Of a stretch of DNA of 64,000 nucleotides, positions 18,172-47,886 are shown in pieces. The notes beneath the pieces are model-generated. The model ran no database searches, had not been told where the DNA came from, and was given only the letters and a program-made list of their open reading frames with translations. Source of the DNA: a virus; IMG/VR virus record IMGVR_UViG_3300045988_116708, positions 9,039 to 73,038 of that record, one strand, 5' to 3'. The position numbers and the translations under genes are program-made. Position 1 is the first letter of the stretch, and each line of letters starts with the position of its first letter.

Positions 18172-18202
18172 TAACTTTGCATTACATGTCAAGTGGCATG
18201 TA
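18172..18202 (+). promoter_or_regulatory. Promoter (-7 box) plus 5' hairpin H0 of the terminase operon
   Basis: TAACTTTG at 18172-18179; hairpin TACATG-T-CAAGTG-G-CATGTA at 18183-18202, 19 nt before ATG 18222. Confidence 0.55.
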
Positions 18203-18221
18203 GCTAATCGGACGAAAAGAC

Positions 18222-18788
18222 ATGAGGTTATCAATAAAACAGGAAAATTTTTGTAATTACTACATTGAATGTGGGAACGCATCCGAATCTTATCGTCGTG
18301 CGTATTCTTGTAAGAATATGAAAGACAACACTGTTAATCGGAAAGCGATTGAACTGTTAAATAACGGCATGATTACGGCAAGGGTCAAAGAATTGCAATT
18401 AGAACAAAAGGAGAAGTCAGATATAACTAAAGAGCGTATCTTACAGGAATTATCCGGTATTGCATTTTCTACCATCGCCGATATGCATAATACTTGGATT
18501 GAACGTAAGGAATTTGACCGGCTTTCTAAGAAAGAAAAATCATCAATAAAAAGTATTTCTACAAAAGTGCTTAAAAAGAATATCGGCACAAGAGATGAGC
18601 CGGAAATAGTGGATGTTGAGTATGTGAAGATAGAGTTGTACGATAAAATAAAAGCTATTGAGCGTATCTGCAAGATGCTTGGTTTTGATTCACCAACAGA
18701 AGTGAATATCAACAAGGACAGTGAGGATATGTCCCGTGAAGATATGTTGGATGAATTAGAACGTCTGGAAAAATTGCGTGAGGAATAA
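18222..18788 (+). CDS. terS: Terminase small subunit
   Basis: LSIKQENFCNYYIECGNASESYRRAYS...NRKAIELLNNGMITARVKEL = Terminase_2 pattern; immediately upstream of terL. Confidence 0.75.
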   Translation: MRLSIKQENFCNYYIECGNASESYRRAYSCKNMKDNTVNRKAIELLNNGMITARVKELQLEQKEKSDITKERILQELSGIAFSTIADMHNTWIERKEFDRLSKKEKSSIKSISTKVLKKNIGTRDEPEIVDVEYVKIELYDKIKAIERICKMLGFDSPTEVNINKDSEDMSREDMLDELERLEKLREE

Positions 18789-20254
18789 TGAGATTAACTG
18801 ATGCACAGGTAAAAAGAAAGCTTGAGTTGGAGCGTCTGCTATTGAAAATGGATGCTCCCAATATGTTTTATAAATTTATTCCGTATATCAATGCGTCATA
18901 TACCAGTATGTGGTTCCACAAGGTTATTGCTGATCATTGCCAAATGCTTTTTGATGGTAAAATCAAGAATTTAATGGTATTCATGCCGCCACAAAATGGG
19001 AAATCTGAAATTGTATCTCGTAATTTCCCAGCGTTTGCTTTAGGCTGTAATCCTGATCTTAAAATTGTCGGTACATCGTATAGTGCTAATCTTGCAGAAC
19101 AATTCTCGCGTTCTATTCAGCGTATTATAGATAGCAAGGAGTATCAAGCTATATTCCCCAATACTTATCTTAATGGAAGTAATGTCAGGACGTGTGTAAA
19201 AGGTTATTTGCGCAATGTGGATATATTTGAGACGGTGGGGCATAAAGGTTTTTATAAGGCGGTTGGTGTCGGTGGTTCTTTGACGGGAACGCCAGTGGAT
19301 ATAGCCATTATTGATGACCCGGTAAAGGATGCAATGGAAGCCTATTCTGTTACTTACAGAGAGCGCGTGTGGGATTGGTATACTTCAGTGTTGCTTACAC
19401 GTCTTCATAATGAAAGCAAACAGCTTTTTATTATGACGAGATGGCATGACGATGACCTTGCCGGACGCATATTGAAGAAGGAACCTGACAAATGGACTGT
19501 ATTGTCTGTTCCTGCTATACGCGAGACACTTGAGGATGGGAATGATTTTGACCCTCGCAAGGTAGGCGAGGCATTGTGGCCGCAACGTCATTCTTTGGAA
19601 AGGCTTCTTGACGCACAAAAACGTTCGCCAAGATTCTTTTCTGCGTTATACCAGCAGCATCCCACCGTTGAAGGAGGTAATATTATCAAGGAAGCGTGGT
19701 TTGGTCATATTTCTGCTTTTGACTTTAAGAAAAAGCTTAAATATGAGCCTATAATCTTTTTTGTCGATACGGCTTATACGGAAAAAACGAGCAACGATCC
19801 GACTGGCATACTCGGTTCCTGCATGATTGGTAATGATATATATATTGTGTGTGGAAAGAAGGTGAATATGAAGTTCCCTGAATTGTGCCGTTTTCTTCCT
19901 TCCTATGTACGTGACAATGGATATGGAAGTGATAGTACGGTAAGGATTGAACCGAAAGCAAATGGTCTTTCCGTAATAGACCAATTACGCGAAACAACCA
20001 ACCTGAGTGTTGTTGCCACTTCTTCACCAAAAGACAGCAAAGAAACAAGGTTAAACGCTGCCTCTCCTTTTGTTGAGAGTGGACGTGTGTATCTTGTGGA
20101 TGGAGATTGGAATGAAATGTTTATTGATGAGGTGTGCGGTTTTCCTGCAAAACCTCATGATGAGTTTGTGGATTTGCTTTGCTACTCGATAGATTATCAT
20201 CACAGAAGCTTTAATGAATTGAGTGACGAGGAGATTCTAAGGGATTTTCTTTGA
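18788..20254 (+). CDS. terL: Terminase large subunit
   Basis: MPPQNGKSE (Walker A-like), IAIIDDP (Walker B), TRWHDDDLAGR, C-terminal nuclease region; ATGA overlap with terS. Confidence 0.9.
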   Translation: MRLTDAQVKRKLELERLLLKMDAPNMFYKFIPYINASYTSMWFHKVIADHCQMLFDGKIKNLMVFMPPQNGKSEIVSRNFPAFALGCNPDLKIVGTSYSANLAEQFSRSIQRIIDSKEYQAIFPNTYLNGSNVRTCVKGYLRNVDIFETVGHKGFYKAVGVGGSLTGTPVDIAIIDDPVKDAMEAYSVTYRERVWDWYTSVLLTRLHNESKQLFIMTRWHDDDLAGRILKKEPDKWTVLSVPAIRETLEDGNDFDPRKVGEALWPQRHSLERLLDAQKRSPRFFSALYQQHPTVEGGNIIKEAWFGHISAFDFKKKLKYEPIIFFVDTAYTEKTSNDPTGILGSCMIGNDIYIVCGKKVNMKFPELCRFLPSYVRDNGYGSDSTVRIEPKANGLSVIDQLRETTNLSVVATSSPKDSKETRLNAASPFVESGRVYLVDGDWNEMFIDEVCGFPAKPHDEFVDLLCYSIDYHHRSFNELSDEEILRDFL

Positions 20255-20263
20255 TTATATGAA

Positions 20264-20312
20264 AGAAGTGACTCTAAATACGTCACTTCTTTAAATTAAA
20301 TTCCTATATTTG
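20264..20312 (+). promoter_or_regulatory. Palindrome + promoter cassette 2
   Basis: AGAAGTGAC-N9-GTCACTTCT (20264-20290) then TATATTTG (20305-20312) followed by CATCGTGAAAA. Confidence 0.55.
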
Positions 20313-20438
20313 CATCGTGAAAACAATAAGACTGGTCGAGTGAAGCCCTCCGGAAACAAGATATTAATGTAAAGTGTCTATTTAATGCTACGGGGCTTCA
20401 CAATATGCGTGGCAAAGGATAGGCACTTTATTTTTTAT

Positions 20439-20456
20439 CTGCGTGAAGAGGCGCAG
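20439..20456 (+). promoter_or_regulatory. Leader hairpin H1
   Basis: CTGCG-T-GAAGAG-G-CGCAG, 6 nt upstream of ATG 20463. Confidence 0.5.
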
Positions 20457-20462
20457 TACATT

Positions 20463-20714
20463 ATGAAAAATAATCATTCATATGCGAGTATTCGCAATTT
20501 ACTGCCGAAAACATTTGCTGTTGTGAAAAGTATTAGTACCTTTGCGGTGCGACAACTTTATTTACATAACAGCTATGTGGATTTTTTATATCCATACGGC
20601 ATACTTTTTAATAATATATTGGAGAAGTTACACTCGTGTCTTTATTCGCCGCATAGCAGTAAAGAGGTTGTCGCAGACTTAGGGTGTACTTCTCCTTTTT
20701 TTGTAAACAAATAA
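20463..20714 (+). CDS. Possible small protein (83 aa)
   Basis: Internal ATG of track ORF 20385-20714. It is supported only because the H1 hairpin sits just upstream, as at other genes. Confidence 0.3.
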   Translation: MKNNHSYASIRNLLPKTFAVVKSISTFAVRQLYLHNSYVDFLYPYGILFNNILEKLHSCLYSPHSSKEVVADLGCTSPFFVNK

Positions 20715-20723
20715 TTTCATTTC

Positions 20724-21662
20724 ATGCGACAACCAAATGAAATCTATTTGAACGGGAATAATAGTACCGTACAAATTGCGTCAGCTCACGAGACGAGCAA
20801 GACTTTCTCCTATAATGGGAACGATGTCCTTTTTGACATCAAAGATGATGTTATGGTTAACGCCACACAGCTTGCTAAAATCTATGGAAAGCGCCCTGCT
20901 GAATATTTGAGATTGCCAGATACGGTAAAATTGATTAATGCAATTACAAGAAAATATGGTATTTCTGAAAATCAATTAGTTGTAACATCAAAAGGTGGGA
21001 ATATTAGCGATATGGGAAAATCCCACATCGTTGATAATCAACAAGGTACTTGGATGCACAGATTAATAGTAGTTGATTTCTGTCAATGGTTAGACATTGA
21101 TTTGAAACTATGGTGTACCGAGAAGCTTGACGAGTTAATGAGATACGGTATGACCGCCACGCAGCCAACGCTTGAGCAGATGATTAACAACCCTGACCTT
21201 GTTATAAGTCTTGCCACACAACTAAAGAGCGAACGTGAGGAGAAGCAACGATTGGCATTGGAAGTGCAGAAAAAGGAACAGGAGAAGCTGTCTATCATAG
21301 AGGGAACAAAGCCAGCCGTAGTATTCACGGAATGTGTAACAAGCTCGTCTACCAATATTCTCATAGGAGATCTTGCGAAACTTATCACTCAAAACGGATA
21401 TAAGATTGGAGAAATAAGGCTTTATGAATGGATGGTAGAGAACAAGTACCTTATCAGAAAGCAGCGATACAGCAAGTCGAAGAATAAATACGTAAATGAC
21501 TATATGCCCACACAGAGGACGTCAGAAATGGGATTGTTCTTTGTGAAAGAAAGACCGATAGTGTCGGGTGGAAGTCCCATTTTTATAAAACATACCTGTT
21601 ACGTTACAGGTAAAGGCCAGGTGTATTTTCTGAATAAGTTTAAATCTTTAATGGCTGCATGA
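20724..21662 (+). CDS. KilA-N / KilAC (ANT) antirepressor-like protein
   Basis: VMVNATQLAKIYGKRPAEYLRL...QQGTWMHRLIVVDFCQWLDIDLKLW (KilA-N); C-terminal LIGDLAKLITQNGYKIGEIRLYEWMVENKYLIRK (KilAC). Confidence 0.75.
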   Translation: MRQPNEIYLNGNNSTVQIASAHETSKTFSYNGNDVLFDIKDDVMVNATQLAKIYGKRPAEYLRLPDTVKLINAITRKYGISENQLVVTSKGGNISDMGKSHIVDNQQGTWMHRLIVVDFCQWLDIDLKLWCTEKLDELMRYGMTATQPTLEQMINNPDLVISLATQLKSEREEKQRLALEVQKKEQEKLSIIEGTKPAVVFTECVTSSSTNILIGDLAKLITQNGYKIGEIRLYEWMVENKYLIRKQRYSKSKNKYVNDYMPTQRTSEMGLFFVKERPIVSGGSPIFIKHTCYVTGKGQVYFLNKFKSLMAA

Positions 21663-21864
21663 TCATGGAAATAAAAATGAATAATAGCTTAACATTTGAT
21701 GAAGTAGCAGATAAGTTGGGATGTTCAGTGGAGGAACTTTAAAAATTGGCTTTAGAAAATGGCTTGATTGACGAGAATGGAAATCCTACCGAAATGGCCA
21801 ATAAGAGAGGGACTTCTTCTGATGGAAGTTGGCGAAAATACAGTGAGTTGACATATAAATGCGT

Positions 21865-21899
21865 AAGACGCTGTGATAAACTAGCACAGCGTCTTTTGT
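21865..21899. terminator. Intrinsic terminator between convergent units
   Basis: AAGACGCTGTG-ataaactag-CACAGCGTCTT then TTG. Confidence 0.65.
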
Positions 21900-21912
21900 A
21901 TGTCACATTAAT

Positions 21913-22875
21913 TTATAATTGCTTATTTATCAATTGTTCGACTTTCTTAAGCCTCTCGGCGTATTTTTTCTCTTTCGGGAATGTAGATATGGCTTTTTTA
22001 ATAATACGCAGTTCGTTCACGTAATCCTTTTGTTTTCTATATAATATCATAAGTCTGTCATAAGAATGTGTTGCGTCACAATCTTCGTAAGAAATGTTTT
22101 GCTCATATGTTTTGATAGCCTCTTGAATTTCTCCACGTTTTTCAAGTTCAATGCCCTTGTTGTTTAGCATCGCTATACGATGTATGGAACGTTCTTGTTT
22201 CATGTATGCAGAACGTCTTTCTTCCATGGCATCCAACTTGGATTTCTTTATGTCTATATATTCGTCTATACCATTATACTCCCCAAATAAATCACCCATA
22301 ACAGCCCCTTTGAAATATCGTTTATGTAGGTAGCTCCATTTCACACGTACATATCCATCCCCCAAGTCTATAATAGAGCCTTTCCCGTATTTGGATATAG
22401 TTTCCTCTTCTAACTCCTTAGCTTTTCGCTCCTTGTCTTTTATCTGTTGTATTGATGTATTTATGGGTATGTTGAAATCGTACCCATTTACTGTTGATTT
22501 ATATTCTCCTACAATATCTCCGTTATCATAAACATCTACGTCTATTCCTTTAACTGATACATGCTGTGGTTCCAGTTTATTTGTACGCTTCATGGCTTCT
22601 TCATACTCATTACGAATGACAGAACGTGCTTGCTTAAGCGTCATATTATTCAGTATTATTGTATCGGGAAGCTGATTTATGTAGCTTATTATTGCATTAT
22701 AACTTTTAATGACATCATTTTTGTTTGATGCGTTATCCATGTCACGCAGGCATTGATTGATTAATCGAACTTTATATTCGTAAAGATCGGATTTTGTATT
22801 GCTGTCTTTGCTGCTAATTCGGCATAAGGCTATTATCAATACTATCGTGGAAGCAATGATGATTATTATTGCCAT
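21913..22875 (-). CDS. Membrane-anchored protein with C-terminal TPR-like region
   Basis: N-terminal TM helix MAIIIIIASTIVLIIAL; C-terminal NNKGIELEKRGEIQEAIKTYEQ...YDRLMILYRKQKDYVNELRIIKKAI; 8 nt downstream of the XRE gene in the same operon. Confidence 0.65.
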   Translation of the reverse strand: MAIIIIIASTIVLIIALCRISSKDSNTKSDLYEYKVRLINQCLRDMDNASNKNDVIKSYNAIISYINQLPDTIILNNMTLKQARSVIRNEYEEAMKRTNKLEPQHVSVKGIDVDVYDNGDIVGEYKSTVNGYDFNIPINTSIQQIKDKERKAKELEEETISKYGKGSIIDLGDGYVRVKWSYLHKRYFKGAVMGDLFGEYNGIDEYIDIKKSKLDAMEERRSAYMKQERSIHRIAMLNNKGIELEKRGEIQEAIKTYEQNISYEDCDATHSYDRLMILYRKQKDYVNELRIIKKAISTFPKEKKYAERLKKVEQLINKQL

Positions 22876-22882
22876 ATTAGGT

Positions 22883-23176
22883 TCACAATTTATCAGCTAA
22901 CTTTTTAATATCTTCCTTACTCGTAACCTTGTGGATGGTTCCGTCTAATTCGATGTAGCCGTTTATACTGGTCGGTTCCTCGAATAACTCGGTTATTCTC
23001 ACATTTAAGGCACTGGCGATTTTTTCCAATGTCTCAAGTGATGGATTTACCTTTCCATTAATTATATTACTCGTGTTTGTCTGTGAAATACCTATCATTG
23101 TGGATAAATCCATAACTTTAACACCTTTCTCTTTACACACTTCTTTTATTCTCAATTCTGCCATAATGTAGTGCAT
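22883..23176 (-). CDS. XRE-family HTH regulator (second repressor-like gene); start may be 23164
   Basis: LRIKEVCKEKGVKVMDLSTMIGISQTNTSNIINGKVNPSLETLEKIASALNVRITELF. Confidence 0.8.
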   Translation of the reverse strand: MHYIMAELRIKEVCKEKGVKVMDLSTMIGISQTNTSNIINGKVNPSLETLEKIASALNVRITELFEEPTSINGYIELDGTIHKVTSKEDIKKLADKL

Positions 23177-23304
23177 TAATTAGTTATGATGCAAAAGTAC
23201 AATACTTATCCTTATATTTAATGTATTACATGATTAATTAATGTTAATATGATGTAGTATATTATTGTTTTGTTTTGATATATTAATCTACTACATTATA
23301 TTTG
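23166..23304. promoter_or_regulatory. Divergent promoter/operator region of module B
   Basis: Minus-strand -7 box at 23192-23199 (CAAAAGTA). Plus-strand -7 box TATATTTG at 23297-23304, followed by CATTGTGAAAT. Half-sites ATGTAGTG 23166-23173, ATGTAGTA 23252-23259, TACTACAT 23289-23296, and palindrome ATGTATTACAT 23221-23231. Confidence 0.55.
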
Positions 23305-23343
23305 CATTGTGAAATTGATGTATCACGTTAAAATGTATAACAT

Positions 23344-23736
23344 ATGAAACGTTACGATTTAAGCAAGATAATGAGAAGAGCACACCAGTTATTCATTAAC
23401 GCTCGTGCAAAGTACCCGACATTTTCTGATGCACTCCGTAAATCTTGGAACATGGTAAAGTTTGAGGTTAAGGTAGCTGAAACACGCCAAGCAATCGAAG
23501 CGGAAGAAAAAGCTCGTGAAGCGAAGGAATGCGAAGAAAGGGAACAGGCTGCTGTTAATTCAGTTCTTCTTCATGCACAACTGGAAGCCGACCGGATCAG
23601 ACGTGAAGCGGAAGCCAAAGCACAACGTATGAGAGAAGAAATGGCAGCACGTAAAGAAGGTATAGCTTATAACGAATATCAAGAATGTATCAGCCGTGCT
23701 ATGGGTTACGGAATTGGTGCTTATTGTGGAGATTAA
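23344..23736 (+). CDS. Hypothetical early protein, paralog of 5289-5600
   Basis: Shared N-terminus MKRYxLSxIMxxAH and C-terminal YxGD; central E/R/A-rich helix. Confidence 0.6.
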   Translation: MKRYDLSKIMRRAHQLFINARAKYPTFSDALRKSWNMVKFEVKVAETRQAIEAEEKAREAKECEEREQAAVNSVLLHAQLEADRIRREAEAKAQRMREEMAARKEGIAYNEYQECISRAMGYGIGAYCGD

Positions 23737-23740
23737 AATT

Positions 23741-23830
23741 ATGATAGAAATAATAATCATATTCGTTTGTCTCTTTTTAGGGTATTTTCTTTTTAAGAGA
23801 AAGGGAGACTCTCTTTTTTACAAAGACTAA
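23741..23830 (+). CDS. Possible 29-aa hydrophobic peptide
   Basis: MIEIIIIFVCLFLGYFLFKRKGDSLFYKD; below the track cutoff. Confidence 0.25.
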   Translation: MIEIIIIFVCLFLGYFLFKRKGDSLFYKD

Positions 23831-24383: not shown

Positions 24384-24387
24384 AAGC

Positions 24388-24407: not shown

Positions 24408-24417
24408 TACATAGGTA

Positions 24418-24665: not shown

Positions 24666-24688
24666 TAACCGAAAACACTTCTTTTGTG

Positions 24689-24708
24689 TTTTCATTGCTC
24701 TTATGTGC
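24689..24708. repeat. Right arm of the 20-bp inverted repeat
   Basis: TTTTCATTGCTCTTATGTGC. Confidence 0.8.
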
Positions 24709-24880
24709 ACTGGCTTGTGAAAGTCGGTGCCATTTTTGTTCTATGTCAAAAGTTAAATCTTTGATTTAGAGAGGTTTGTTGTAAAAATAAAAGTGTAAAT
24801 CTTTGGATAACTCGTTGATAATTATTATCTTTACAATACAAAAAGAAACCAATAATACTAACAATTAAAAGACAAGAGCA

Positions 24881-25696: not shown

Positions 25697-25732
25697 AAAG
25701 TGGCATAGTGAATGTCACTTTTGTTATATTTG
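25697..25732 (+). promoter_or_regulatory. Palindrome + promoter cassette 3
   Basis: AAAGTGGCA-N7-TGTCACTTT (one G-U wobble if read as RNA) then TATATTTG at 25725-25732. Confidence 0.55.
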
Positions 25733-25834: not shown

Positions 25835-25852
25835 CCGTATGAAGATGTACGG
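25835..25852 (+). promoter_or_regulatory. Leader hairpin H2 (portal operon)
   Basis: CCGTA-T-GAAGAT-G-TACGG, 3 nt before ATG 25856. Confidence 0.55.
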
Positions 25853-27670: not shown

Positions 27671-28228
27671 GTGGAAAATATTGAATTTAATGAAAAAGAA
27701 GGTTTGTATGTAGCTGATTTTGAATCAAAAGGCAAGTGTGTGATTCAGATTGATAATAATACGGCAGATAATCTTGTTTTTTATCGTTACATGCCAGATA
27801 TGGAGCCAAGCTCATACGATAAGTTGGATTTTGATTGTAGAAAGAGGATATTTGATTTGGATATACCTATTGGAATGATGATACGTATTATTAGTAAGAC
27901 GGAAGTAAAAGCCGCCAAAATGATTGTCATACAACAACCAAACGGTAGCAGTTCTTCTATTACAGAAGTAGAAGCGACTATTGATAATAATACTGGTATT
28001 CCATCTGTGAACGTTTCTACAGAAGATGGTAAATTACAGTTTGACTTTAAAAATCTAAAAGGGACCAAGGGGGATAATGGGACAAATGGCAGTGATGGAG
28101 AAAAAGGTGCGACTGGCGCAAAAATTATGTCCATTGAATTGAGTATTACCGGAACGTCTATTTCAGGTACGGCGCATTTAGATGATGAAAGTACAGCGCC
28201 TATTTCTGGTACATATAATCCAGCATAA
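27671..28228 (+). CDS. Paralog of 27283 with C-terminal extension containing a short collagen-like tract
   Basis: GTG start; [22 protein letters not shown] run. Confidence 0.55.
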
Positions 28229-28253
28229 ACATATAATTTTAAATAATATAAAG

Positions 28254-28970
28254 ATGAAAAAGTACATTGGAACAAAACAAATTGAAGCGGAACCTATAAC
28301 AATGGGTGAAGCATTTGAAAAAGGTTTATTGCAAGTAGGCAGAGTACCCACCGAATCCGAAAAGGACAAAAATGGGTATCGTGTAAGGTACAAGGACGGT
28401 TACGAAAGCTGGTCTCCTGCCGAACCGTTTGAGGAAGCATATAAATGCGCTGACACTTTCCTTGACCGTTTGCAGATTGAGCATGATGATCTTGTAGAAA
28501 AGTATGACAAGTGCGAAAAGTTTGTAGATTCGGATAAGTTCCGTGAAATTGTACAAGAGGATTATCCGGCATTTCTGTTATCATTGCAACGAAATGTGAT
28601 GAATAGATATGGAAGTATTATTGAACAAAGAATGTCCATAGCTAAAGGAGAAACAAGCATTACAACACTTCCAAGAATGTCCTTTGGAGATGCAATCGAA
28701 GCGTTGAAGTTCGGTTTTGCCATCCGTAGAAAAGGCTGGAACGGTAAAGGTCTGATGGTATTCAAACAAATACCAGCGCATATCGAAAGTGATATTATCC
28801 CCAAGATGCAATCACTTCCGCAATCAGCAAAAGACCTTATTCTGAAAGGCAAGGGCTTCATAGACTATACAAGCCAGTGTCTTATCTACAACGAAAATAC
28901 TGGTCGTGCTGATTCATGGGTTCCGTCTATCAGTGATGTATTTGCCGAAGATTGGGAGATTGTACAATAA
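28254..28970 (+). CDS. Two-domain protein with C-terminal DUF2829 (Tad2-like candidate)
   Basis: C-terminus MSFGDAIEALKFGFAIRRKGWNGKGLMVF...SWVPSISDVFAEDWEIV. N-terminus KQIEAEPITMGEAF...GYRVRYKDGYESWSPAEPFEEAY. ATG 28254 is preferred over the track start 28182. Confidence 0.7.
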   Translation: MKKYIGTKQIEAEPITMGEAFEKGLLQVGRVPTESEKDKNGYRVRYKDGYESWSPAEPFEEAYKCADTFLDRLQIEHDDLVEKYDKCEKFVDSDKFREIVQEDYPAFLLSLQRNVMNRYGSIIEQRMSIAKGETSITTLPRMSFGDAIEALKFGFAIRRKGWNGKGLMVFKQIPAHIESDIIPKMQSLPQSAKDLILKGKGFIDYTSQCLIYNENTGRADSWVPSISDVFAEDWEIVQ

Positions 28971-32515: not shown

Positions 32516-32551
32516 AAAGTGGCGTTTAAAACGTCACTTTTGCTACCTTTG
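32516..32551 (+). promoter_or_regulatory. Palindrome + promoter cassette 4
   Basis: AAAGTGGCG-N7-CGTCACTTT then TACCTTTG at 32544-32551. Confidence 0.55.
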
Positions 32552-32559: not shown

Positions 32560-32577
32560 GCGTATGAAGATGTACGC
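32560..32577 (+). promoter_or_regulatory. Leader hairpin H3 (scaffold/capsid operon)
   Basis: GCGTA-T-GAAGAT-G-TACGC; same loop as H2, with the outer pair swapped C-G to G-C. Confidence 0.55.
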
Positions 32578-32663
32578 CACAGAACTTGTCGTGTTGTGAT
32601 TTGCTTCAATTTAGCACGATTGAACGAAACTCATTGCTCTAATGTTTAGTAAAGTTCTAAGCG

Positions 32664-32702
32664 AATAGTCTGCTGGCATACGTGCTACGCAGACTATTTT
32701 TG
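32664..32702 (+). terminator. Intrinsic terminator inside the capsid-operon leader
   Basis: AATAGTCTGC-N15-GCAGACTATT then TTTTG, 19 nt before ATG 32721. Confidence 0.6.
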
Positions 32703-32720
32703 TAATTAAAACATTATACA

Positions 32721-33457: not shown

Positions 33458-33859
33458 ATGGGCGCAAAAGCTGATTTAGTAAACGAACAGGAGACGATTT
33501 TAACCGGAATGGATTCGATTGTTATTCGTAACTATTTGGGCGGAATTATGAATGGGCGGACATTAGACATGACTGGATTTAAGCAGTCTGTAATTAAAGC
33601 CGGTCATATTGTTATCCGCGATACAGAGAACGATACCTATAAGCCAATGCCTGTTAACTCAGCAGGCACAGCTTACGAATCATTGCCATCTAATCATGAA
33701 TACGTTGGTGTTGTTGTTTGTTCAAAACCTGCCGACAAGCCATTCGTTGGTATTATGTATGCTGGTGAAGTAAATGATGTGGCGAGTCCTTATCCTATTG
33801 ACAGCATTAAGGCTGCATTAAAAACGGCATTGCCGCAATTGGCTTTTTTACACGATTAA
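33458..33859 (+). CDS. Head-associated protein (decoration-like, positional call)
   Basis: 133 aa between the scaffold and capsid genes. Confidence 0.45.
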   Translation: MGAKADLVNEQETILTGMDSIVIRNYLGGIMNGRTLDMTGFKQSVIKAGHIVIRDTENDTYKPMPVNSAGTAYESLPSNHEYVGVVVCSKPADKPFVGIMYAGEVNDVASPYPIDSIKAALKTALPQLAFLHD

Positions 33860-33873
33860 AAAGGAGGTGAAAG

Positions 33874-36773: not shown

Positions 36774-36791
36774 CTATATTAAGTGATATAG
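36774..36791 (+). promoter_or_regulatory. Hairpin H6 (variant) upstream of the major tail gene
   Basis: CTATA-T-TAAGTG-A-TATAG, 4 nt before ATG 36796; the loop resembles H0 (CAAGTG). Confidence 0.35.
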
Positions 36792-37392: not shown

Positions 37393-37463
37393 GCGGAGAT
37401 GGTGTAATGGTTGCATATATATCATCCAGATATCAGGTTACGGTTCAAATCCGTATCTCCGCT
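37393..37463 (+). tRNA. tRNA-like element with a non-canonical anticodon arm (Gly-UCC-like?)
   Basis: Acceptor GCGGAGA/TCTCCGC, D-arm GTGT-AATGGTT-GCAT, T-arm TACGG-TTCAAAT-CCGTA. The anticodon arm folds as ATATC-ATCCA-GATAT (5-nt loop), or as a 7-nt loop CAUCCAG with A at position 33. Confidence 0.5.
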
Positions 37464-37540
37464 CTGTTTTTTGAGAATCTGATTTGTTGTTCATAATTTA
37501 ATGTCGGTTGTCTGTGAAGATAGCCGATAAAAAATAATTG

Positions 37541-38460: not shown

Positions 38461-38468
38461 TATATTTG
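38461..38468 (+). promoter_or_regulatory. -7 promoter box
   Basis: TATATTTG preceded by IR TATCTGT...ACAGATA; followed by hairpin GTAACA...TGTTAC. Confidence 0.5.
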
Positions 38469-38879
38469 CATCTGTAACAAGTACGAGATGTTACCAGACA
38501 TTGATTCAGTATTCTCCTGTACGGAGTTTATATATGAATAGCCTCGTAGTAGCTCGTACCTATTACGGGGCTTTCTATTTAAAGCCAGTTATACAATCGG
38601 TTCTATCAGTGCCAACCGTTCCGAACTTTGACAGCGGAGAGATAAAATGGCTCTTATGTTTTGCACTATATGTCTTTTATTGGAAAGTCCTGCTCTGTTC
38701 CTATCACCTAACAACAGGCGCCCAAGCGTTGTATTACGATAACCAATAAGGGATGAATCAAAGATATTGGAGAAGTATTGAGTGTTAAAGCAACAAAATG
38801 GATAATTGAAGTTTAATAAAGTCCATCCACCTCCTAATAATTATCTTGGGAGAAAGGGTGAGGTATAAAATTAGTCAAC

Positions 38880-41407: not shown

Positions 41408-41690
41408 ACGTCACTTTTGCGATTATGCCATAATTTTGTAGATGATTTTTTAAGCGCAGATTAGATATAATTTGTATCTTTGTGGTGCTAACAACTTATA
41501 GGAGCGGCAAACTCCTATGGCTTCATCATTGGAGCTATTTTTTTGCCAGTACATATAACAAGTAGTATCATAATTTAAGATATTGCGCACGAACGGTGGG
41601 GTAACAGAAATGTCCCCAAACTAAATTCCTATGAGTTTGTTAGCAGCCGTGAACGTGCGCATTTTTTTGTTATGCTAACAAACTCGATTC
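41408..41690 (+). promoter_or_regulatory. Half cassette, promoter and about 230-nt structured leader of the Bro-N gene
   Basis: ACGTCACTTTTG 41408-41419; TAATTTTG 41431-41438; a terminator-like GCGCACG...CGTGCGC+T7; and the 13-bp pairing GAGTTTGTTAGCA / TGCTAACAAACTC that covers ATG 41672. Confidence 0.5.
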
Positions 41691-42532
41691 AAGTTCTAAA
41701 ACAAACAGAATTGTGTGGACGGCAATTCACAGTTTACGGAACGGCAGAAAATCCATTGTTCTTAGCCAAAGAAGTAGCAGAGTGTATTGAACACAGTAAC
41801 ATCACCGTAATGCTTCAAACAATAGATGAAGAAGAAAAGGTGAAAATCACCCCTAAACAATCCTTAGGGGACTTAGTTAACTACAAAGAATACAACTTCT
41901 TAACTGAAGATGGCTTATACGAAGTCCTCATGCAATCCCGCAAACCTATCGCAAAGCAATTCAAGAAGGGAGTTAAACAAATCCTTCACGAAGTACGAAC
42001 TATTGGCGGTTACATCGCCACCAAGCAAGACGACACCCCCGAAGAAATCATGGCACGTGCGCTAACCATCGCACAAGCTACCCTTGCCAAAAGAGAGGAA
42101 CGGTTAAAGCAGCTTGAAGCTCAAGCCGAACAACAGCAAGTCACCATCGAGATTCAGACAGAGGAAATCAAGAAAGCAGCACCGAAAGTCAGCTACTACG
42201 ACAACCACTTGCAGAGTGTGAACACGCAGACAAGCACCCAAGTAGCCAAGCAGATTGGCTTGGATGCGGAGAAGCTTCACAAGAAACTGAAAGAAATCGG
42301 AATCATCTACAAGCAATCGGGGCAATGGCTCCTTCATGCTCCTTATTCCACTTGGGAGCTGCATTCCACCCGTACACAGACGTACACACGTTCGGACGGT
42401 TCGACAGGAACAAGTGTATATACGGTATGGACTACCAAGGGCGTGCGTTTCATCATCGCATTGTACGAGAATGATTGGAATGTGAAGAAATCCATTAAGC
42501 AGATAAAGGGCGAGATGAATCCGGCCGCATAA
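41672..42532 (+). CDS. Bro-N / KilAC antirepressor-like protein
   Basis: FTVYGTAENPLFLAKEVAECI...EDGLYEVLMQSRKPIAKQFKKGVKQILHEVRTIGGY (Bro-N); C-terminal KilAC-like region. Confidence 0.75.
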   Translation: MLTNSIQVLKQTELCGRQFTVYGTAENPLFLAKEVAECIEHSNITVMLQTIDEEEKVKITPKQSLGDLVNYKEYNFLTEDGLYEVLMQSRKPIAKQFKKGVKQILHEVRTIGGYIATKQDDTPEEIMARALTIAQATLAKREERLKQLEAQAEQQQVTIEIQTEEIKKAAPKVSYYDNHLQSVNTQTSTQVAKQIGLDAEKLHKKLKEIGIIYKQSGQWLLHAPYSTWELHSTRTQTYTRSDGSTGTSVYTVWTTKGVRFIIALYENDWNVKKSIKQIKGEMNPAA

Positions 42533-42604
42533 CACTATTGCATAATTATCAGCGGTCCTTTTCAATGCAGGACAGCCTAAGTTGTACACAATAAAATATT
42601 ACCT

Positions 42605-42676
42605 ATGAAAGTTGAATTAGATGTTAATCAATATATGGAAATGCTCAAAGCATTTACGGAATATTCAGACAAATAG
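42605..42676 (+). pseudogene. 23-codon remnant homologous to the N-terminus of 6224-6424
   Basis: MKVELDVNQYMEMLKAFTEYSDK* vs MIKVEISQYLAMLKSFTECAQY... Confidence 0.45.
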
Positions 42677-42701
42677 AACAATTTTAAAAAATAAACGTTT
42701 T

Positions 42702-43115
42702 TTATTCCCTTATTGCCATTTTAAGTGATTCTTCTAGTTTTCCTGCATATTTAAATATATCGTCTATACTGTCAATCTGAAGCCATTCGCAACTCTTGTA
42801 GTTATCTAATGGTATTCCTATCTGCTTCTTTCTTGCGCCAATAGAGATACGGCATATCCAAAACCACTGGCTGTTATCAAGGTTTACGACGAAGTAGCTC
42901 TTGTAGTCTCTATAGGTTATACGTGCCACATCCACGCTTTTTCTTAAAATACTTCTTACGATATTGTAAGCATCCAATTCTTCTTGCGTCGTTACAACAC
43001 CGGATTCTTTATCCATGTATACAACTCCGTCCGGGAGTTGCTCTTCTGTAGCTATACTATCCTTTTGCTTTTGGATACGTTCTGCAAGTTGTAAGATTTG
43101 ATCTTTAAAGTCCAT
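42702..43115 (-). CDS. Small protein resembling the termini of HsdR_N-family (restriction-endonuclease-like) proteins
   Basis: MDFKDQILQLAERIQKQKDSIATEE then TTQEELDAYNIVRSILRKSVDVARITYRDYKSYFVV...IDDIFKYAGKLEESL. The -7 box (CAAATATA, 43145-43152) overlaps the track start, so ATG 43115 is preferred. The family call is from memory. Confidence 0.5.
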   Translation of the reverse strand: MDFKDQILQLAERIQKQKDSIATEEQLPDGVVYMDKESGVVTTQEELDAYNIVRSILRKSVDVARITYRDYKSYFVVNLDNSQWFWICRISIGARKKQIGIPLDNYKSCEWLQIDSIDDIFKYAGKLEESLKMAIRE

Positions 43116-43221
43116 GCTTTTATTGTTGTATAATAATATATGCACAAATATATTTTATATAACAATATAAACAAAATTAAAGATAAAAAAATAATCTATT
43201 AAATATGTTTTTGCTATGTAT

Positions 43222-43254
43222 GTGGCATTTAATACGTCACTTTTATTATCTTTG
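43222..43254 (+). promoter_or_regulatory. Palindrome + promoter cassette 6
   Basis: GTGGC-N9-GTCAC, TTTT, then TATCTTTG at 43247-43254. Confidence 0.5.
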
Positions 43255-43259
43255 CAATG

Positions 43260-43277
43260 CCGTGTGATGTTGCACGG
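43260..43277 (+). promoter_or_regulatory. Leader hairpin H4 (tape measure)
   Basis: CCGTG-T-GATGTT-G-CACGG, 23 nt before ATG 43301. Confidence 0.55.
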
Positions 43278-43300
43278 AACTATTTCTATCGAAAAGACTT

Positions 43301-46300
43301 ATGGCTGGATTACACTTCGACATAACCGGTGACAACTCCAACTTTATACGTAAACTTCATGAGTGTGAAAATGGAGTAAAAAACACATCCCGACAAATAG
43401 AACAAAGTGGGTTAGGTATAGAAGATTTATTTAACCGTATGACTAAAGCTGCTGCCGCATTCGGAGTTGGTTTCACTGCGAAAGAATTAATTTCAAATAT
43501 AGCACATGTTCGCGGCGAGTTTCAACAATTGGAAGTTGCATTTAAGACAATGCTTGGTAGCGAAGATAAAGCTAATGCTCTTATGCAACAGTTGGTCAAA
43601 ACAGCTGCTACTACACCATTTGATTTGCAAGGAGTTGCAAATGGAGCCAAACAGCTTCTTGCTTACGGAGAAAACGTTGAGAATGTCAATGATGATTTGA
43701 TACGTCTTGGGAATATAGCAGCAGGTCTTTCTCAGCCGCTTGGTGATATTGTGTATTTGTACGGTACTACCATGACGCAAGGACGGTTATACACGGCGGA
43801 TTTAAACCAATTTACTGGCCGTGGTATCCCTATGATTCGCGAATTAGCAAAAGTATTTGGTGTCGCTGAAGGGAAAGTAAAAGGTTTGGTTGAAGCAGGG
43901 AAGGTTGGTTTTCCTGAAGTGCAGAAAGTTATCCAGAATCTTACAAATGAAGGTGGAATGTTTTTCAACTTGATGCAGGAACAATCTAAAACGATTGCTG
44001 GTCAGATTTCAAATATTGAAGATGCAATTGCTACTATGTTCAATGAAATTGGTAAAGCCAATGAAGGTATTATCAATGATGCTTTGTCTGGGGTTTCTTA
44101 TCTGGTTGAAAACTACGAAAAGGTAGGAGCTCTTTTATTAGAAATAGTAGGAACTTATGGAGTATACCGTACAGCCCTTATGGCTACGACTGCATTGCAG
44201 GCTTTGCAAGCTTCCGGTATAACTGCTTTAACGGCGAAAGAAGCTATTCATTATGGGTGGTTAGTGCTTACGAAGAAAGCTCAAGATGCCTTAAATTTAT
44301 CCATGCTTAAAAATCCTTATATATTGGTTGCTGCATCTATTGCAGGATTGGTTTATGGTATATATAAATTTGCTACAGCAGAAAGTGATACGGAACAAGC
44401 AATTCGTAAAACGAACGATGCACTTGAGGCACAAAATAATCATTATGAAGAGTTGAAAAATAAGGCAAGTCAACTCTCTAATATTTTAAGTGATGAATCT
44501 AAATCTATAGAAGAGCGTTTCATTGCATATCGTAAACTTCAGCGTTTAATGCCAGAAGTTTTTAAAGATATGGATTGGGAAGCAGCTAAACGGAAAACAA
44601 ATGCTGAGCTTACAAAACTTGAGAATGATGAACTTTTAAGACAGCAACGTATTGGGCTAAAAACAAAGGTTGTAATGTCTCAACAAAAAATACAGGGGCT
44701 AAGGAGTAGCTTAATAAAAACTCAAAATGCTGGTGGGTATACTGGGGCATTAAAGGAAGATTTAGCTGCTGCTGAAAAAGAATTGGAAATATATCAAGAG
44801 GCCCTTAAGGCTTTTGAGGAAGCCAAAGAAGAATCGAAAAAAGCTAAAAATGCTCCAACTGTACAAGACAAAGAATATTGGGAGAATCAAAAAAAAGAAG
44901 CTGAAAATGCCTTAGAATCTATTGCATCTTCTCAAAAGAGATTGTTGGACGCTGGTAACTTTAAAGGTATAGATACTGCTGTTGTAAAGAGTTACAAGGA
45001 TAATGTTAAAAAGCTAAAGGAGGCTGAAAAAGAACTGAAGGTTTATGACACCTCTTCCAAACAGGAATCTGCTGCTGAAAAACTTCGCAAACAGCAAGAA
45101 GGCATTCGTTCCCAGAATGATAAGATCTCTGAAATAGAACGCAAACAGGCAATCCAGCGTAAAAGGCAGGCTGAAGATATGGAAATGGAAATCTCACAGT
45201 CTGAGATCAATGCCATGGCTGATGGATCTGAGAAAAAACGTATGCAGAGGGAATTGGATAACCGGAAAGAGATCCAATCACTGGAAAGGCAAAAAGAAGA
45301 TATGATCCAGGCTGTAATTCAAGCTGAGAAAGAGATTTTTGATGCTCAGGAAGAGTTGAAGGTTAAAGAGAATAACAAATATCAGAAAAAGACTTTTGAT
45401 TCTTCTAAGGTGGATACAGAGAAGATTAGCTCTATCTGGGATACCATTATAGGGAACACGTCTAGAAAGCAACTTGATGATAAAATACGCGAACAAGAGG
45501 CGTCTTGGAACGAATATCTTATCAAGTTTGGCAACTATCAACAGAAAAGGCTGGCCATTATTGAGAAATATGATAGGGCCATAAAGGAGGCCGAAACGGC
45601 GGGTGATGTAGCTATCTTGATGAAAGAGAAAGCTAATGCGCTTGATGATTTTGACAACTCCGTAAAGAATAGTACAACCTTAATGGGGCAGCTCTTTGCT
45701 GATGCTTCCCAAAAGAGTGTGAACGAGATTCAGTCCATCATTGCAAAAGCCGAATTATTGATGCAATACCTTGGTGCCGTTAAGGATGAACAGGGAAATG
45801 CTCAAATCGGTGGAAAGACAGTTTCAAAGAAGGATATTTTAGGTCTTGGGATAAGTGACAATACCCTTCAAAATTTAGAACTTTCAACCGAGCAAACAGA
45901 GGCACTAAGAAATGCTATTGGTCGTTTAAAAGAGGAATTGGGAGCAAAGAGTCCTTTTGCGCTTTTCAAAAAGCAAGTAAAAGAAGCGGCAGGTGAAATA
46001 GCGAAAGGAGGTCAGGAAAATATTGCTCGAGGGATTGCAGGGATCGGAAGTGCTATTGTTCAATTTACTCCTGCTATATCTCAGTTTGGTCAGGATCTTG
46101 GTACAATATTTGGCAACGACGATCTTGGTAATAAAATAGCTGGTATTTCTGATGCGTTAGGTGGAGTTGGCCAAACAGCCATGGGAGTTGGCCAGATAAT
46201 GTCTGGTGATATTGTAGGTGGTGCTATGAGTGCTGTTTCCGGTATTTCATCAGTTGTAAAGGCCTTGGATGGTTTGTTTGGTGCTGATTATTCCCGATAC

Positions 46301-47383
46301 AATGAAATGAAGTCACAATATGAAGCTCTTAATTCTGTGTGGGATGAACTTATCAATAAGAAGAAAGAGTATATTGATATGTCTTATGGGGATGAAGCGT
46401 ATAAAGTTGGGAAAGAGGCCGAAAGCCTGATAAAGCAACAAACCCAAAGATATTATGAACTTCTGAATGAATTAAGAAAAAGTGGGTCCAGTATCGGGTC
46501 AAGTTCTTTAGGCAAACGAATAGAAAAAAGACTTAATAAAGAAGATTGGGCCAGAATATCCAGTGCTGTTGGTGAATCTGTAACAAATGCAGAAACTTTA
46601 TTAAATCTTTCAGCAGAACAGCTAGAAGAAGTGCTTGCCGACCCTAAGCTAGTCTCTGTCCTCAATACTGTCAACGAAGACTTTATAAAGTATATACAAG
46701 ATATTGTGAATGGTTCCGAAAAATTAGAGGATATACAGAATCAAGTCAAAGAACAGCTTACTCAAGTATCGTTTGATAGCGTGTTTGACAGTTTTGTAGA
46801 CACTTTGATGAATATGGATAGTTCGGCTAAGGATTTCGCTGATGATTTCACTTCTTATATGCAAAAAGCTATCCTTTCTACTATGTTAGGAAAGACATAT
46901 GAAAAACGGTTGCAAGAATGGTATGATGCTTTTGCTTCGGCTAATGAAGATAAAGGCGGTATCTCTAGTGATGAATATAAGAATCTGCAAGAACAGTGGA
47001 ATAGCATTGTTAATGATGCCATTAAAGAACGTGATGAATTAAAGGATTTGCTTGGTTGGGGTTCCGATACTTCCGCTTCGCAAGATTCTACAAAACGAGG
47101 GTTTGAAGGAATGTCCCAGGATACAGCAGAAGAACTGAACGGACGTTTCACAGCTTTGCAAATGGCAGGGGAAGAGATTAAGAATCAAATGATAAATGTT
47201 GTTGTTGGAGTTAACTCTTTAATTTCAATCTCAACAGAAGAGAATGTTACCTTGAGTAATATCCTTAGCCAACATGTAATTACGAATGGCTATTTAGAAG
47301 ATATTGTAAAACACACAAAGCTGATGCTTGGTTTTGGAGATAAATTTGATAGGATGATTACTGTTTTTAATGATAGACTATAA
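43301..47383 (+). CDS. Tail tape measure protein
   Basis: 1360 aa, helical and coiled coil; N-terminal TMP core GVANGAKQLLAYG...LIRLGNIAAG. Confidence 0.9.
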   Translation: MAGLHFDITGDNSNFIRKLHECENGVKNTSRQIEQSGLGIEDLFNRMTKAAAAFGVGFTAKELISNIAHVRGEFQQLEVAFKTMLGSEDKANALMQQLVKTAATTPFDLQGVANGAKQLLAYGENVENVNDDLIRLGNIAAGLSQPLGDIVYLYGTTMTQGRLYTADLNQFTGRGIPMIRELAKVFGVAEGKVKGLVEAGKVGFPEVQKVIQNLTNEGGMFFNLMQEQSKTIAGQISNIEDAIATMFNEIGKANEGIINDALSGVSYLVENYEKVGALLLEIVGTYGVYRTALMATTALQALQASGITALTAKEAIHYGWLVLTKKAQDALNLSMLKNPYILVAASIAGLVYGIYKFATAESDTEQAIRKTNDALEAQNNHYEELKNKASQLSNILSDESKSIEERFIAYRKLQRLMPEVFKDMDWEAAKRKTNAELTKLENDELLRQQRIGLKTKVVMSQQKIQGLRSSLIKTQNAGGYTGALKEDLAAAEKELEIYQEALKAFEEAKEESKKAKNAPTVQDKEYWENQKKEAENALESIASSQKRLLDAGNFKGIDTAVVKSYKDNVKKLKEAEKELKVYDTSSKQESAAEKLRKQQEGIRSQNDKISEIERKQAIQRKRQAEDMEMEISQSEINAMADGSEKKRMQRELDNRKEIQSLERQKEDMIQAVIQAEKEIFDAQEELKVKENNKYQKKTFDSSKVDTEKISSIWDTIIGNTSRKQLDDKIREQEASWNEYLIKFGNYQQKRLAIIEKYDRAIKEAETAGDVAILMKEKANALDDFDNSVKNSTTLMGQLFADASQKSVNEIQSIIAKAELLMQYLGAVKDEQGNAQIGGKTVSKKDILGLGISDNTLQNLELSTEQTEALRNAIGRLKEELGAKSPFALFKKQVKEAAGEIAKGGQENIARGIAGIGSAIVQFTPAISQFGQDLGTIFGNDDLGNKIAGISDALGGVGQTAMGVGQIMSGDIVGGAMSAVSGISSVVKALDGLFGADYSRYNEMKSQYEALNSVWDELINKKKEYIDMSYGDEAYKVGKEAESLIKQQTQRYYELLNELRKSGSSIGSSSLGKRIEKRLNKEDWARISSAVGESVTNAETLLNLSAEQLEEVLADPKLVSVLNTVNEDFIKYIQDIVNGSEKLEDIQNQVKEQLTQVSFDSVFDSFVDTLMNMDSSAKDFADDFTSYMQKAILSTMLGKTYEKRLQEWYDAFASANEDKGGISSDEYKNLQEQWNSIVNDAIKERDELKDLLGWGSDTSASQDSTKRGFEGMSQDTAEELNGRFTALQMAGEEIKNQMINVVVGVNSLISISTEENVTLSNILSQHVITNGYLEDIVKHTKLMLGFGDKFDRMITVFNDRL

Positions 47384-47807
47384 TATGGCAGCGGGAGAAT
47401 TTTATATAAATAATAAAGACACTTATACTACATGGGGTATAAGTATGGATACTTCTTCTTTATCATCATTGATGACGCCACCTCCAATGAAAGATTTTAT
47501 AGAAAACAAATCTCGTTTGGAGCACGGTAAGAGAGTCATAACATCAAATCCTAAGATTGATGAACGGAATATTACATTGACATTTAATCTTACAGCTAAA
47601 AATGAAGAGCAATTTTTTTCACGGTACAACTCTTTTTGTGAAGAATTGGCTACTGGGGTATTGCATATCAAAAGCAAATATCAACCCAGTATTGTATATA
47701 AAACTATTTATTTGTCATGTAATCAGTTCACACAGTTTATGAGAGGAATCGCTAAATTTTCGTTGAAATTAGTAGAACCTAATCCGACAGATAGGGCTAT
47801 AACATAA
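47370..47807 (+). CDS. Distal tail protein-like (positional)
   Basis: Overlaps the TMP stop; 145 aa. Confidence 0.5.
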   Translation: MIDYNMAAGEFYINNKDTYTTWGISMDTSSLSSLMTPPPMKDFIENKSRLEHGKRVITSNPKIDERNITLTFNLTAKNEEQFFSRYNSFCEELATGVLHIKSKYQPSIVYKTIYLSCNQFTQFMRGIAKFSLKLVEPNPTDRAIT

Positions 47808-47817
47808 TTTTAATTAT

Positions 47818-47853
47818 AAAGTGATTGTTTCAATGTCACTTTTGTTATATTTG
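47818..47853 (+). promoter_or_regulatory. Palindrome + promoter cassette 7
   Basis: AAAGTGA-N11-TCACTTT then TATATTTG at 47846-47853; near-identical to cassette 1. Confidence 0.55.
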
Positions 47854-47868
47854 CATTCAATAAAAGCA

Positions 47869-47886
47869 TTGTGTGAAGGCGCACAA
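47869..47886 (+). promoter_or_regulatory. Leader hairpin H5 (giant tail protein)
   Basis: TTGTG-T-GAAGGC-G-CACAA, 8 nt before ATG 47895. Confidence 0.55.

Follow-up and report, generated by a model that had tools for sequence, protein, structure and literature searches.

Most known bacterial regulons that are built on leader hairpins act on termination. LoaP, a specialised paralogue of NusG, works with such a leader hairpin, and in Bacteroides the UpxY antiterminators and other NusG-like factors act on the leaders of long operons; 5'-terminal stem-loops such as those of the phage T7 gene 10 leader and of Escherichia coli ompA, are stabilising. Here we describe a family of seven short leader hairpins in a 64,000 nucleotide (nt) stretch of viral DNA (positions 9,039 to 73,038 of IMG/VR record IMGVR_UViG_3300045988_116708; the whole stretch is called the window below), a Bacteroides fragilis prophage whose portal protein is identical to B. 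fragilis proteins. The motif is a stem of 6 base pairs (bp) whose upper part is usually G-U-R-U, a U.G or U-A closing pair, a loop N-A-(A/U)-G-N-N and then a 3' N-A-C. It is a selected RNA structure of the transcribed strand, with covarying stems and a conserved loop, and, judged against Rfam, INPHARED and the searchable literature, it is a phage cis-regulatory RNA motif that has not been described before, in kind a regulatory leader hairpin. A scan of the whole window with Rfam 15 at the gathering threshold, one of the checks proposed in the preliminary description of this DNA (made from the sequence alone), matches only a c4-2 RNA; permissive Rfam scans of two of the leaders (those of H2 and H3, below) give nothing on the hairpins, INPHARED searches for cultured or annotated relatives give tiny matches or none, and no publication printing these hairpin sequences was found in the searchable literature. 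The timing of late gene expression in temperate Bacteroides phages is almost unknown, though such phages are very common in the human gut, and a motif that is widespread in gut Bacteroidales prophages could reveal how their late programme is run.

The preliminary description had likened the hairpins to λ boxB. They share with the boxB of nutL a stem of about 5 bp and a loop that starts U-GAAGA, the same letters as in nutL, and with nut sites in general their place as plus-strand elements in untranslated phage operon leaders, one per unit and at a flexible distance from the promoter. Identity with boxB does not hold, however. BoxB is a G-N-R-N-A pentaloop with a GNRA-tetraloop-like fold on a 5-bp stem, whereas the loop here has six nt (or four on an additional, seventh pair) of which positions 5 and 6 vary; no boxA accompanies it and no gene for an arginine-rich N-like protein was found (see below), the operons are late and not early, there are seven copies, and the upper stem and 3' N-A-C are conserved as well. 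The likeness to LoaP and UpxY systems, in which a small leader hairpin recruits a factor for processive termination resistance of long operons, is a functional analogy alone, and unlike those systems this one comes with no NusG or KOW protein detected among the window's open reading frames (ORFs). Many copies resemble the T7 gene 10 and ompA hairpins in lying at the very 5' end of late, strongly expressed phage transcripts; those two need no specific loop, whereas here conservation extends to the loop core, upper stem and 3' flank, and not every copy is 5'-terminal. In its revised definition the minimal ANTAR site is a single hexaloop (PMC8934654), and the ANTAR hexaloops (EutV, AmiR, NasR/NasT; PMC8934654) are similar in their small stem, six-base loop, invariant G at position 4 and location in 5' leaders. 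In contrast to ANTAR targets, position 1 is mostly G and not A, the hairpins are single and not tandem, and none overlaps a terminator stem; the ANTAR domain PF03861 has no match in the ~80 window ORFs scanned against Pfam. Judged by its sequence the motif is not a standard ANTAR target, only the G at position 4 being shared. In cluster K mycobacteriophages the start-associated sequence (SAS), a linear 13-nt GGGATAGGAGCCC-like motif with a Shine-Dalgarno core, is present in 11–19 copies, one per gene, 3–7 bp from the ATG of non-structural genes (PMC3203893). Like the SAS, the present motif is a short one-orientation repeat 5' of some phage gene starts that is kept across phages even before unrelated genes; unlike it, the motif is a covarying stem-loop (the SAS has no covarying stem) of other sequence, 3–144 nt from the ATG (PMC3203893).

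Members of the hairpin family and their conservation

A covariance model, R1, was built from an alignment (A3) of 43 distinct family members, and its scan of the window gives exactly seven sites, all on the + strand and with 20.7 to 35.6 bits, the next match having 14.2 bits and E>1. The seven are H0 to H5 and a hairpin ahead of the major tail gene (Table 1). H0 to H5 had been reported before and are present exactly as given, their distances to TAnnTTTG boxes and start codons being right within 1–2 nt, and the observation proves stronger than was claimed. Two "looser relatives" had been listed with them, of which the one ahead of the major tail gene is a true member and the one after the gene for transfer RNA (tRNA)-Gly is not. 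An exact scan for Watson-Crick stems of at least 5 bp finds four hairpins with a TGAAGNNG loop and five with a TGANGNNG loop on the + strand and none of either on the − strand; the chance expectation, from dinucleotide-preserving shuffles, is 0.03 and 0.09, respectively. With R1 no family member is found in window positions 1–18000, which hold about 40 early genes. PHROGs matches place the small and large terminase, portal, capsid, tape measure and tail fibre genes where they had been assigned earlier, and a relative of the window phage (L045) carries the same hairpin as H0.

Table 1. Hairpins, late promoter modules and leader terminator of the window (distances are from the end of the −7 box to the hairpin and from the hairpin to the ATG)
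Feature	Position	Strand	Sequence or description	R1 (bits)	−7 box	Next start codon
H0	18183..18202	+	TACATGT-CAAGTG-GCATGTA	20.7	18172-18179, 3 nt	terS ATG 18222, 19 nt
H1	20439..20456	+	CTGCGT-GAAGAG-GCGCAG	26.5	20305-20312, 126 nt	ATG 20463, 6 nt
H2	25835..25852	+	CCGTAT-GAAGAT-GTACGG	35.6	25725-25732, 102 nt	first ATG, 3 nt; conserved portal start ATGGAYGAAAT, 9 nt
H3	32560..32577	+	GCGTAT-GAAGAT-GTACGC	34.2	32544-32551, 8 nt	first head-operon gene ATG 32721, 143 nt
Seventh member	36774..36791	+	CTATAT-TAAGTG-ATATAG	24.4		major tail ATG 36796, 4 nt
H4	43260..43277	+	CCGTGT-GATGTT-GCACGG	31.1	43247-43254, 5 nt	tape measure ATG 43301, 23 nt
H5	47869..47886	+	TTGTGT-GAAGGC-GCACAA	23.6	47846-47853, 15 nt	tail fibre (2009 amino acids) ATG 47895, 8 nt
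Non-member hairpin	37504..37527	+	after tRNA-Gly; GUGA loop, G.U-rich stem	no match at E<=10
Late-type promoter module	32519..32551	+	palindrome GTGGCGT-N5-ACGTCAC, TTTTGC, then TACCTTTG
Equivalent promoter module	25699..25732	+
Equivalent promoter module	43222..43254	+
Equivalent promoter module	47821..47853	+
Looser promoter module	20268..20312	+
Looser promoter module	41409..41438	
Intrinsic terminator, H3 leader	32665..32703	+	ATAGTCTGC...GCAGACTAT and U-run; −17.6 kcal/mol

In the 43 aligned members loop position 4 is always G, position 2 is A in more than 90%, position 1 is mostly G (U, C or A also occur, A in few members), and positions 5 and 6 are free to vary, both among these members and among orthologues. 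An unaligned variant at the major tail site with loop UAAAUG (12 loci) does not have the G at position 4. The base 5' of the loop is always U, opposite G in 22 members and opposite A in 21. The usual upper stem is G-U-R-U / R-Y-A-C, with a perfect inner palindrome GTAT..ATAC in about half of the members, and the three bases past the stem are almost always N-A-C. The conserved core of the originally proposed U-[GAAGNN]-G loop thus stands while the strict GAAG does not, and the stems, which had been said to differ yet stay complementary, do covary and are not wholly free, as the upper G-U-R-U is kept. The set was picked for pairing, so its 100% stem pairing is circular; double compensatory changes nevertheless occur at five of the six stem pairs (72 compensatory cells, where shuffles give 21.9). 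Loop positions 1 and 6, whose pairing played no part in choosing members, can pair in 84% of them versus 57% in shuffles, with six pair types, which may make the structure a 7-bp stem that carries an A-A/U-G-N tetraloop and often ends in tandem U.G/G.U pairs. Predicted stabilities are modest (−2.4 to −8.2 kcal/mol), several members being very weak (−2.4 to −2.9 kcal/mol).

Three sets of relatives were used: 80 IMG/VR contigs with portals 75–100% identical to that of the window, 80 contigs around the tape-measure gene, and 19 prophages of other Bacteroidales genera with portal identities of 48–74%. About 100 related Bacteroidales prophages keep the hairpin at orthologous sites with unrelated, compensating stems, so that the conservation and compensatory covariation for which the preliminary description had proposed to search such prophages are both present. 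On the gene strand of the 80 close portal relatives there are 103 hairpins with a TGANGNNG loop, and on the opposite strand there are none. With R1 the close relatives give 316 matches at E<=1, all on the + strand among the 300 matches listed, and at the same threshold all 16 matches in the 19 distant loci are on the + strand and lie in L081–L084, L088, L090 and L093, the other twelve loci having none. In the clade with about 69% portal identity or more, every relative has the hairpin just 5' of the conserved portal start, with mutually unrelated stems (CCGTAT/GTACGG, GAATAT/ATATTC, GGTGT/ACACT, CGGTAT/ATACCG and TCGTAT/GTACGA). Head-leader orthologues of H3 (GCATGT-GAAGTT-ACATGC, GCGTGT-GAAGAT-GCACGT) also show compensatory changes, the tail-fibre orthologues of H5 include TCGTAT-GAAGGT-ATACGA and TTGTAT-GAAGCT-ATACAA, and the single-base stem changes in tape-measure and head-leader orthologues all keep pairing, through a G.U wobble or a change of U.G to U-A. 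Such wobbles work in the + strand RNA only.

Of 147 relatives 138 have the major-tail hairpin, its loop being TAAGTG, TAAGCA, TAAGCG or TAAATG; it is missing from L081–L085 and L088, whose stop-start junction measures 5–10 nt; it is an insertion of about 25 nt into this otherwise short junction and is confined to the window clade. Orthologous genes of hairpin-free relatives have short, A-rich, unstructured leaders. In relatives that have another module 5' of the portal gene (L001, 2345-2362; L011, 2731-2748; and their equivalents) a family hairpin, GTATAT-GAAGTT-ATATAC or GTGTAT-GAAGTC-ATACAT, lies behind a GC-rich hairpin and heads a Mom-like DNA-modification operon (DAM-like-phage1, GNAT-phage-like, amidoligase), an arrangement that by analogy recalls the Com-controlled mom gene of phage Mu.

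Two coding explanations of the loop were considered and rejected. A mini-ORF starting at (A/G)UG-AAG is contradicted by UAAGUR and CAAGUG loops, which have no start codon, and a 1-nt deletion in L083 shifts the frame of an apparent "ATELVV" peptide, so that the conservation is at the nucleotide level. A Shine-Dalgarno sequence in the loop is resembled only by the variants GAAGGA, AAAGGA and GGAGAU, and genes that do use Shine-Dalgarno pairing have a canonical AAAGGAGGUG.

Late promoters, leaders and terminators

As first described, the hairpins belong to late-operon leaders. A module of about 40 nt is common to the late promoters and consists of a palindrome GTGRC-N7-9-GTCAC, TTTTG and TAnnTTTG, and one hairpin comes after each promoter. 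Judged by its sequence, the palindrome probably binds a late activator or a phage sigma factor. We note that the TTTTG directly ahead of TAnnTTTG replaces the normal −33 TTTG, that the palindrome, if read as RNA, would resemble a weak terminator, and that distant relatives have TTTG-N4-6-CAAA palindromes in place of GTGRC..GTCAC. Each late transcription unit has one hairpin between its promoter and first gene; the major-tail hairpin, which lies in mid-operon 7 nt past the upstream stop codon, is an extra copy. Behind H1 the first gene encodes 83 amino acids and is followed by an Ant-like gene (20724-21662).

A positional survey covered 70 distinct contexts, in which the hairpin lies 4–126 nt from the −7 box and 3–144 nt from the ATG. 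It starts 4–11 nt past the box in 32 contexts and farther away in 20 (copies that start 14–18 nt past the box also occur), and in 18 there is no box within 160 nt. Its end lies 3–24 nt ahead of the next ATG in 47 contexts and 62–144 nt ahead in 17, and all of the latter are head-operon leaders. The order in this leader is promoter, hairpin, a conserved GAACUUGUCGU, a conserved CAUUGCUCU, a strong intrinsic terminator and the ATG. In the window H3 sits at roughly +1 to +3 of this leader, and the terminator follows about 100 nt past it, ahead of the first head-operon gene. The hairpin and terminator helices both covary, down to a phage with 64% portal identity, and no conserved promoter lies 3' of the terminator in the relatives. 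Other terminator-like hairpins separate the late units.

Possible functions of the leader hairpins

The conserved loop core beside drifting positions 5 and 6 points to sequence-specific recognition, and the conserved face of the hairpin (upper stem G-U-R-U, U.G/U-A pair, A at loop position 2, G at position 4 and 3' N-A-C) looks like a surface for one sequence-specific RNA-binding factor. A specific trans-acting factor is favoured because the A-A/U-G core, the upper stem and the 3' N-A-C are under purifying selection whereas adjacent loop positions drift, because several members have very weak stems, and because the loop in the 5' hairpin of a nearby small RNA candidate (described in the last section) is unconstrained. 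We infer the existence of this factor, and likewise its action on termination rather than on messenger RNA (mRNA) decay or translation. The partner that had been suggested, a basic Cys/His protein of 66 amino acids encoded at 14659-14859, gains no support: it has no family or PDB match and is patchy among relatives, with close homologues in 65 viral contigs, of which only about 7 are among the 80 hairpin-bearing portal relatives. Profiling of 10 kb on each side of the portal gene, a region that is highly mosaic among relatives on its 5' side, found no gene that is in all hairpin-bearing loci and missing from the hairpin-free ones. Searches for N-like proteins gave no Pfam, PHROG or PDB match, short N-like proteins being hard to detect by sequence.

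Ranked first, and put forward tentatively, is that the hairpin serves in the leader as the docking site of a factor that renders RNA polymerase termination-resistant. On this view the seven hairpins are copies of one transcribed leader tag, and one sequence-specific RNA-binding factor would recognise their conserved face and load onto the transcribing polymerase by way of the nascent hairpin; the loaded polymerase would resist termination, as with λ N/nut or the NusG paralogue LoaP, and would read through the head-leader terminator and the long late operons. Its presence once in each late leader, at variable positions, would suit a site of co-transcriptional loading, and antitermination is placed first because, in the operon that encodes the most abundant virion proteins, a conserved terminator separates hairpin and gene and is followed by no conserved promoter. 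It is possible, at a level of confidence that must be called low, that late genes in Bacteroidales are controlled as a regulon. A tag of about 20 nt, with a U.G/G.U top to its stem, an A-A-G core and a 3' N-A-C, would stand once in every late leader, and one factor, either from a new family or a host NusG-type paralogue that the phage has hijacked, would turn on or shield all virion operons. Such a regulon, a doubtful proposal to the same degree, would parallel λ N/nut in function while having arisen independently for late genes, in a phylum whose transcription and translation signals are unusual.

Several results weigh against antitermination. Only one of six late units has an intrinsic terminator after the hairpin and before or within its genes (the count covers intrinsic terminators). 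The hairpin is at the extreme 5' end of the RNA in 32 of the 70 contexts, as a 5' stabiliser would need. The major-tail copy lies in mid-operon, and a terminator follows the major tail gene in relatives with and without the hairpin. No N-like, Q-like, NusG-like/KOW or ANTAR protein was found among the ~85 window ORFs scanned against Pfam or PHROGs, and no boxA (CGCUCUUA-like) in the flanks of the seven hairpins; a 14-mer containing UGCUCU occurs in the H3 leader only, about 55 nt downstream of the hairpin, and is better read as an antisense seed. Finally, the leader terminator may just make a small RNA, a view that is raised by the presence in the leader of the same 14-nt seed as in the independent small RNA candidate. 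A tie between the major-tail hairpin and the downstream terminator was also considered and rejected, as the two show no association among relatives. Antitermination stays viable, with direct support from one unit, the head-operon leader with its conserved intrinsic terminator, and the data agree about equally with mRNA stabilisation and with translational control. The weights given here to the mechanisms are soft, because the factor was not found and Rho-dependent termination could not be assessed.

The hairpin is in any case a compact, portable and easily mutated mark of every late operon, and so offers a handle on late control and a bait for the factor. If the factor is host-encoded the motif would expose a host RNA-binding activity, and to our knowledge the phylum of the Bacteroides host has neither Hfq nor ProQ. 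Strong Bacteroides phage promoters already serve as expression parts, whose behaviour such leader hairpins could alter.

A role as 5' stabiliser or roadblock is somewhat unlikely and is the first of the alternatives. The hairpin, probably protein-bound and placed close to the 5' end of a late transcript or of a processed cistron, would block 5'-end-dependent decay (RNase E entry or scanning, or a 5'-3' exonuclease) and so prolong the life of the late mRNAs and of a leader small RNA. The 32 contexts with the hairpin 4–11 nt past the −7 box place its start near +1 to +5 of the transcript, the H3 leader has a 5' hairpin at one end and a 3' terminator at the other like a stable small RNA, and the mid-operon copy heads the highly expressed major tail gene, itself trailed by a terminator hairpin; moreover, stabilisation needs no downstream terminator and so suits five of the six units. 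A generic stabiliser, however, needs no conserved loop, upper stem or 3' N-A-C (the loop of the small RNA candidate's 5' hairpin is not conserved), several members are very weak at −2.4 to −2.9 kcal/mol, and H1 and H2 lie 126 and 102 nt from their −7 boxes and other copies 14–18 nt from theirs.

Control of translation is less probable still and we regard it as rather unlikely. A factor or the ribosome would bind the hairpin 5' of the start codon and set the initiation of selected late genes, in a host phylum largely without Shine-Dalgarno pairing; the Com-mom system of phage Mu is an analogous case. The closeness of the hairpin to the ATG in 47 contexts is what this explanation would have, as are the A-rich unstructured leaders of orthologous genes in hairpin-free relatives and the insertion of the mid-operon copy exactly between stop and start codon, and there is an analogy to the cluster K SAS (PMC3203893). 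Yet in the short intergenic regions of phages a hairpin can hardly avoid being close to an ATG, its spacing to the ATG varies, and there is one copy per transcription unit and not per gene. The most widely conserved member, that of the H3 type, is 62–144 nt from its start codon with a terminator between, the genes concerned differ much in required expression (portal and tape measure versus major tail), and the capsid gene uses a strong Shine-Dalgarno sequence.

It is very unlikely that the hairpin is the target of a trans-acting RNA, its AAG loop kissing a CUU-containing loop of a phage or host small RNA. The phage does use antisense RNAs (its c4-2 RNA adjoins its complementary target, and the conserved small RNA candidate has a seed for early gene starts), and the 5' loop of the candidate has CUUC or UUCU in most relatives. 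The complementarity is only 3–4 nt, however, and would leave the conserved upper stem and 3' N-A-C unexplained, the candidate's loop varies among relatives (UUCUUUU, UUCUAAUUU, UCCUUGUUU, and quite different in L083), and c4-2 has no CUUC. Both specific partners were rejected, c4-2 because it is not complementary to the loops and pairs with its own downstream antirepressor start, and the small RNA candidate at 24.7 kb because its loop is not conserved. Nor does the hairpin look like a passenger without function of its own in a promoter-leader cassette spread by recombination among late operons, which we consider highly improbable: the late promoters do share their module of ~40 nt and the region 5' of the portal is mosaic, but hairpins without the module exist (the major-tail copy, and H1 and H2 at least 100 nt away), and stems that diverge while pairing and the A-A/U-G core stay are the opposite of neutral drift. 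Least probable of all is a DNA-level element, either a GTAT-N6-ATAC inverted repeat as operator for a dimeric regulator or an N4-type hairpin promoter, for although about half of the members have the perfect inner palindrome and many lie right at promoters, the 22 U.G closing pairs among 43 members and the outer-stem wobbles would not match on the other strand or in a symmetric duplex, the outer stem shows covariation and not sequence conservation, the conserved loop is asymmetric, orientation always follows transcription, one copy is in mid-operon, and no phage RNA polymerase was found, the 2009-amino-acid protein being the tail fibre.

Other features of the window

The small RNA candidate lies at ~24666-24740 (+) and consists of a promoter TACCTTTG (24658), a 5' hairpin that shows compensatory changes in L088, a single-stranded CAUUGCUCUUAUGUG and a terminator (24704-24733). 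The 14-mer CAUUGCUCUUAUGUG recurs in the head leader at 32632-32645. Early genes whose ATGs lie at 5800, 6224, 10844, 17636, 24401 and 24881 have its reverse complement, ACAUAAGAGCAAUG, as their start context; 11 matches are found against 2.75 expected. This suggests that the candidate may be an antisense regulator of early-gene translation. The c4-2 RNA (RF02944, 53.9 bits) at 41581-41666 (+) has a loop, GAGUUUGUUAGCA, that is complementary to the first bases of the next gene, 41672-42532 (+), a Bro-N/KilAC antirepressor, and by sequence the pair is a P1-like c4/ant immunity module in a Bacteroides prophage.

The head leader also has, at 32593-32630 (+), an insertion of about 32 nt, GTTGTGATTTGCTTCAATTTAGCACGATTGAAC(GAAAC), between the strong promoter and the intrinsic terminator. 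It is confined to phages of the window type, is single-copy in 13 IMG/VR contigs, and aligns to the first 34 positions of Rfam CRISPR-DR49 with 28.6 bits (E 0.002), below the gathering score of 41. This resemblance to a solitary CRISPR-repeat unit makes it a candidate RNA anti-CRISPR against a Bacteroides type II-C system. A long, canonical Shine-Dalgarno sequence serves the capsid gene (AAAAAGGAGGUGAAAG-AUG, 33858-33873); it is kept in several relatives and is also found 5' of 24150 and 55238; this is unusual, since Bacteroidetes are generally without Shine-Dalgarno pairing. At 38461-38500 (+) a −7 box, TATATTTG, is followed at once by a hairpin CUGUAAC-AAGUACGAGAU-GUUACCAG, whose loop holds AGUACGAGA, nine bases identical to the universal sarcin-ricin loop of 23S ribosomal RNA, quite possibly by chance. 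The head-region operon encodes at 28182-28970 (+) a protein with Tad2-like (anti-Thoeris) and crAss001_48-related domains, and a gene for tRNA-Gly(UCC), 37393-37464 (+), is situated between the terminator behind the major tail gene and the next tail genes.

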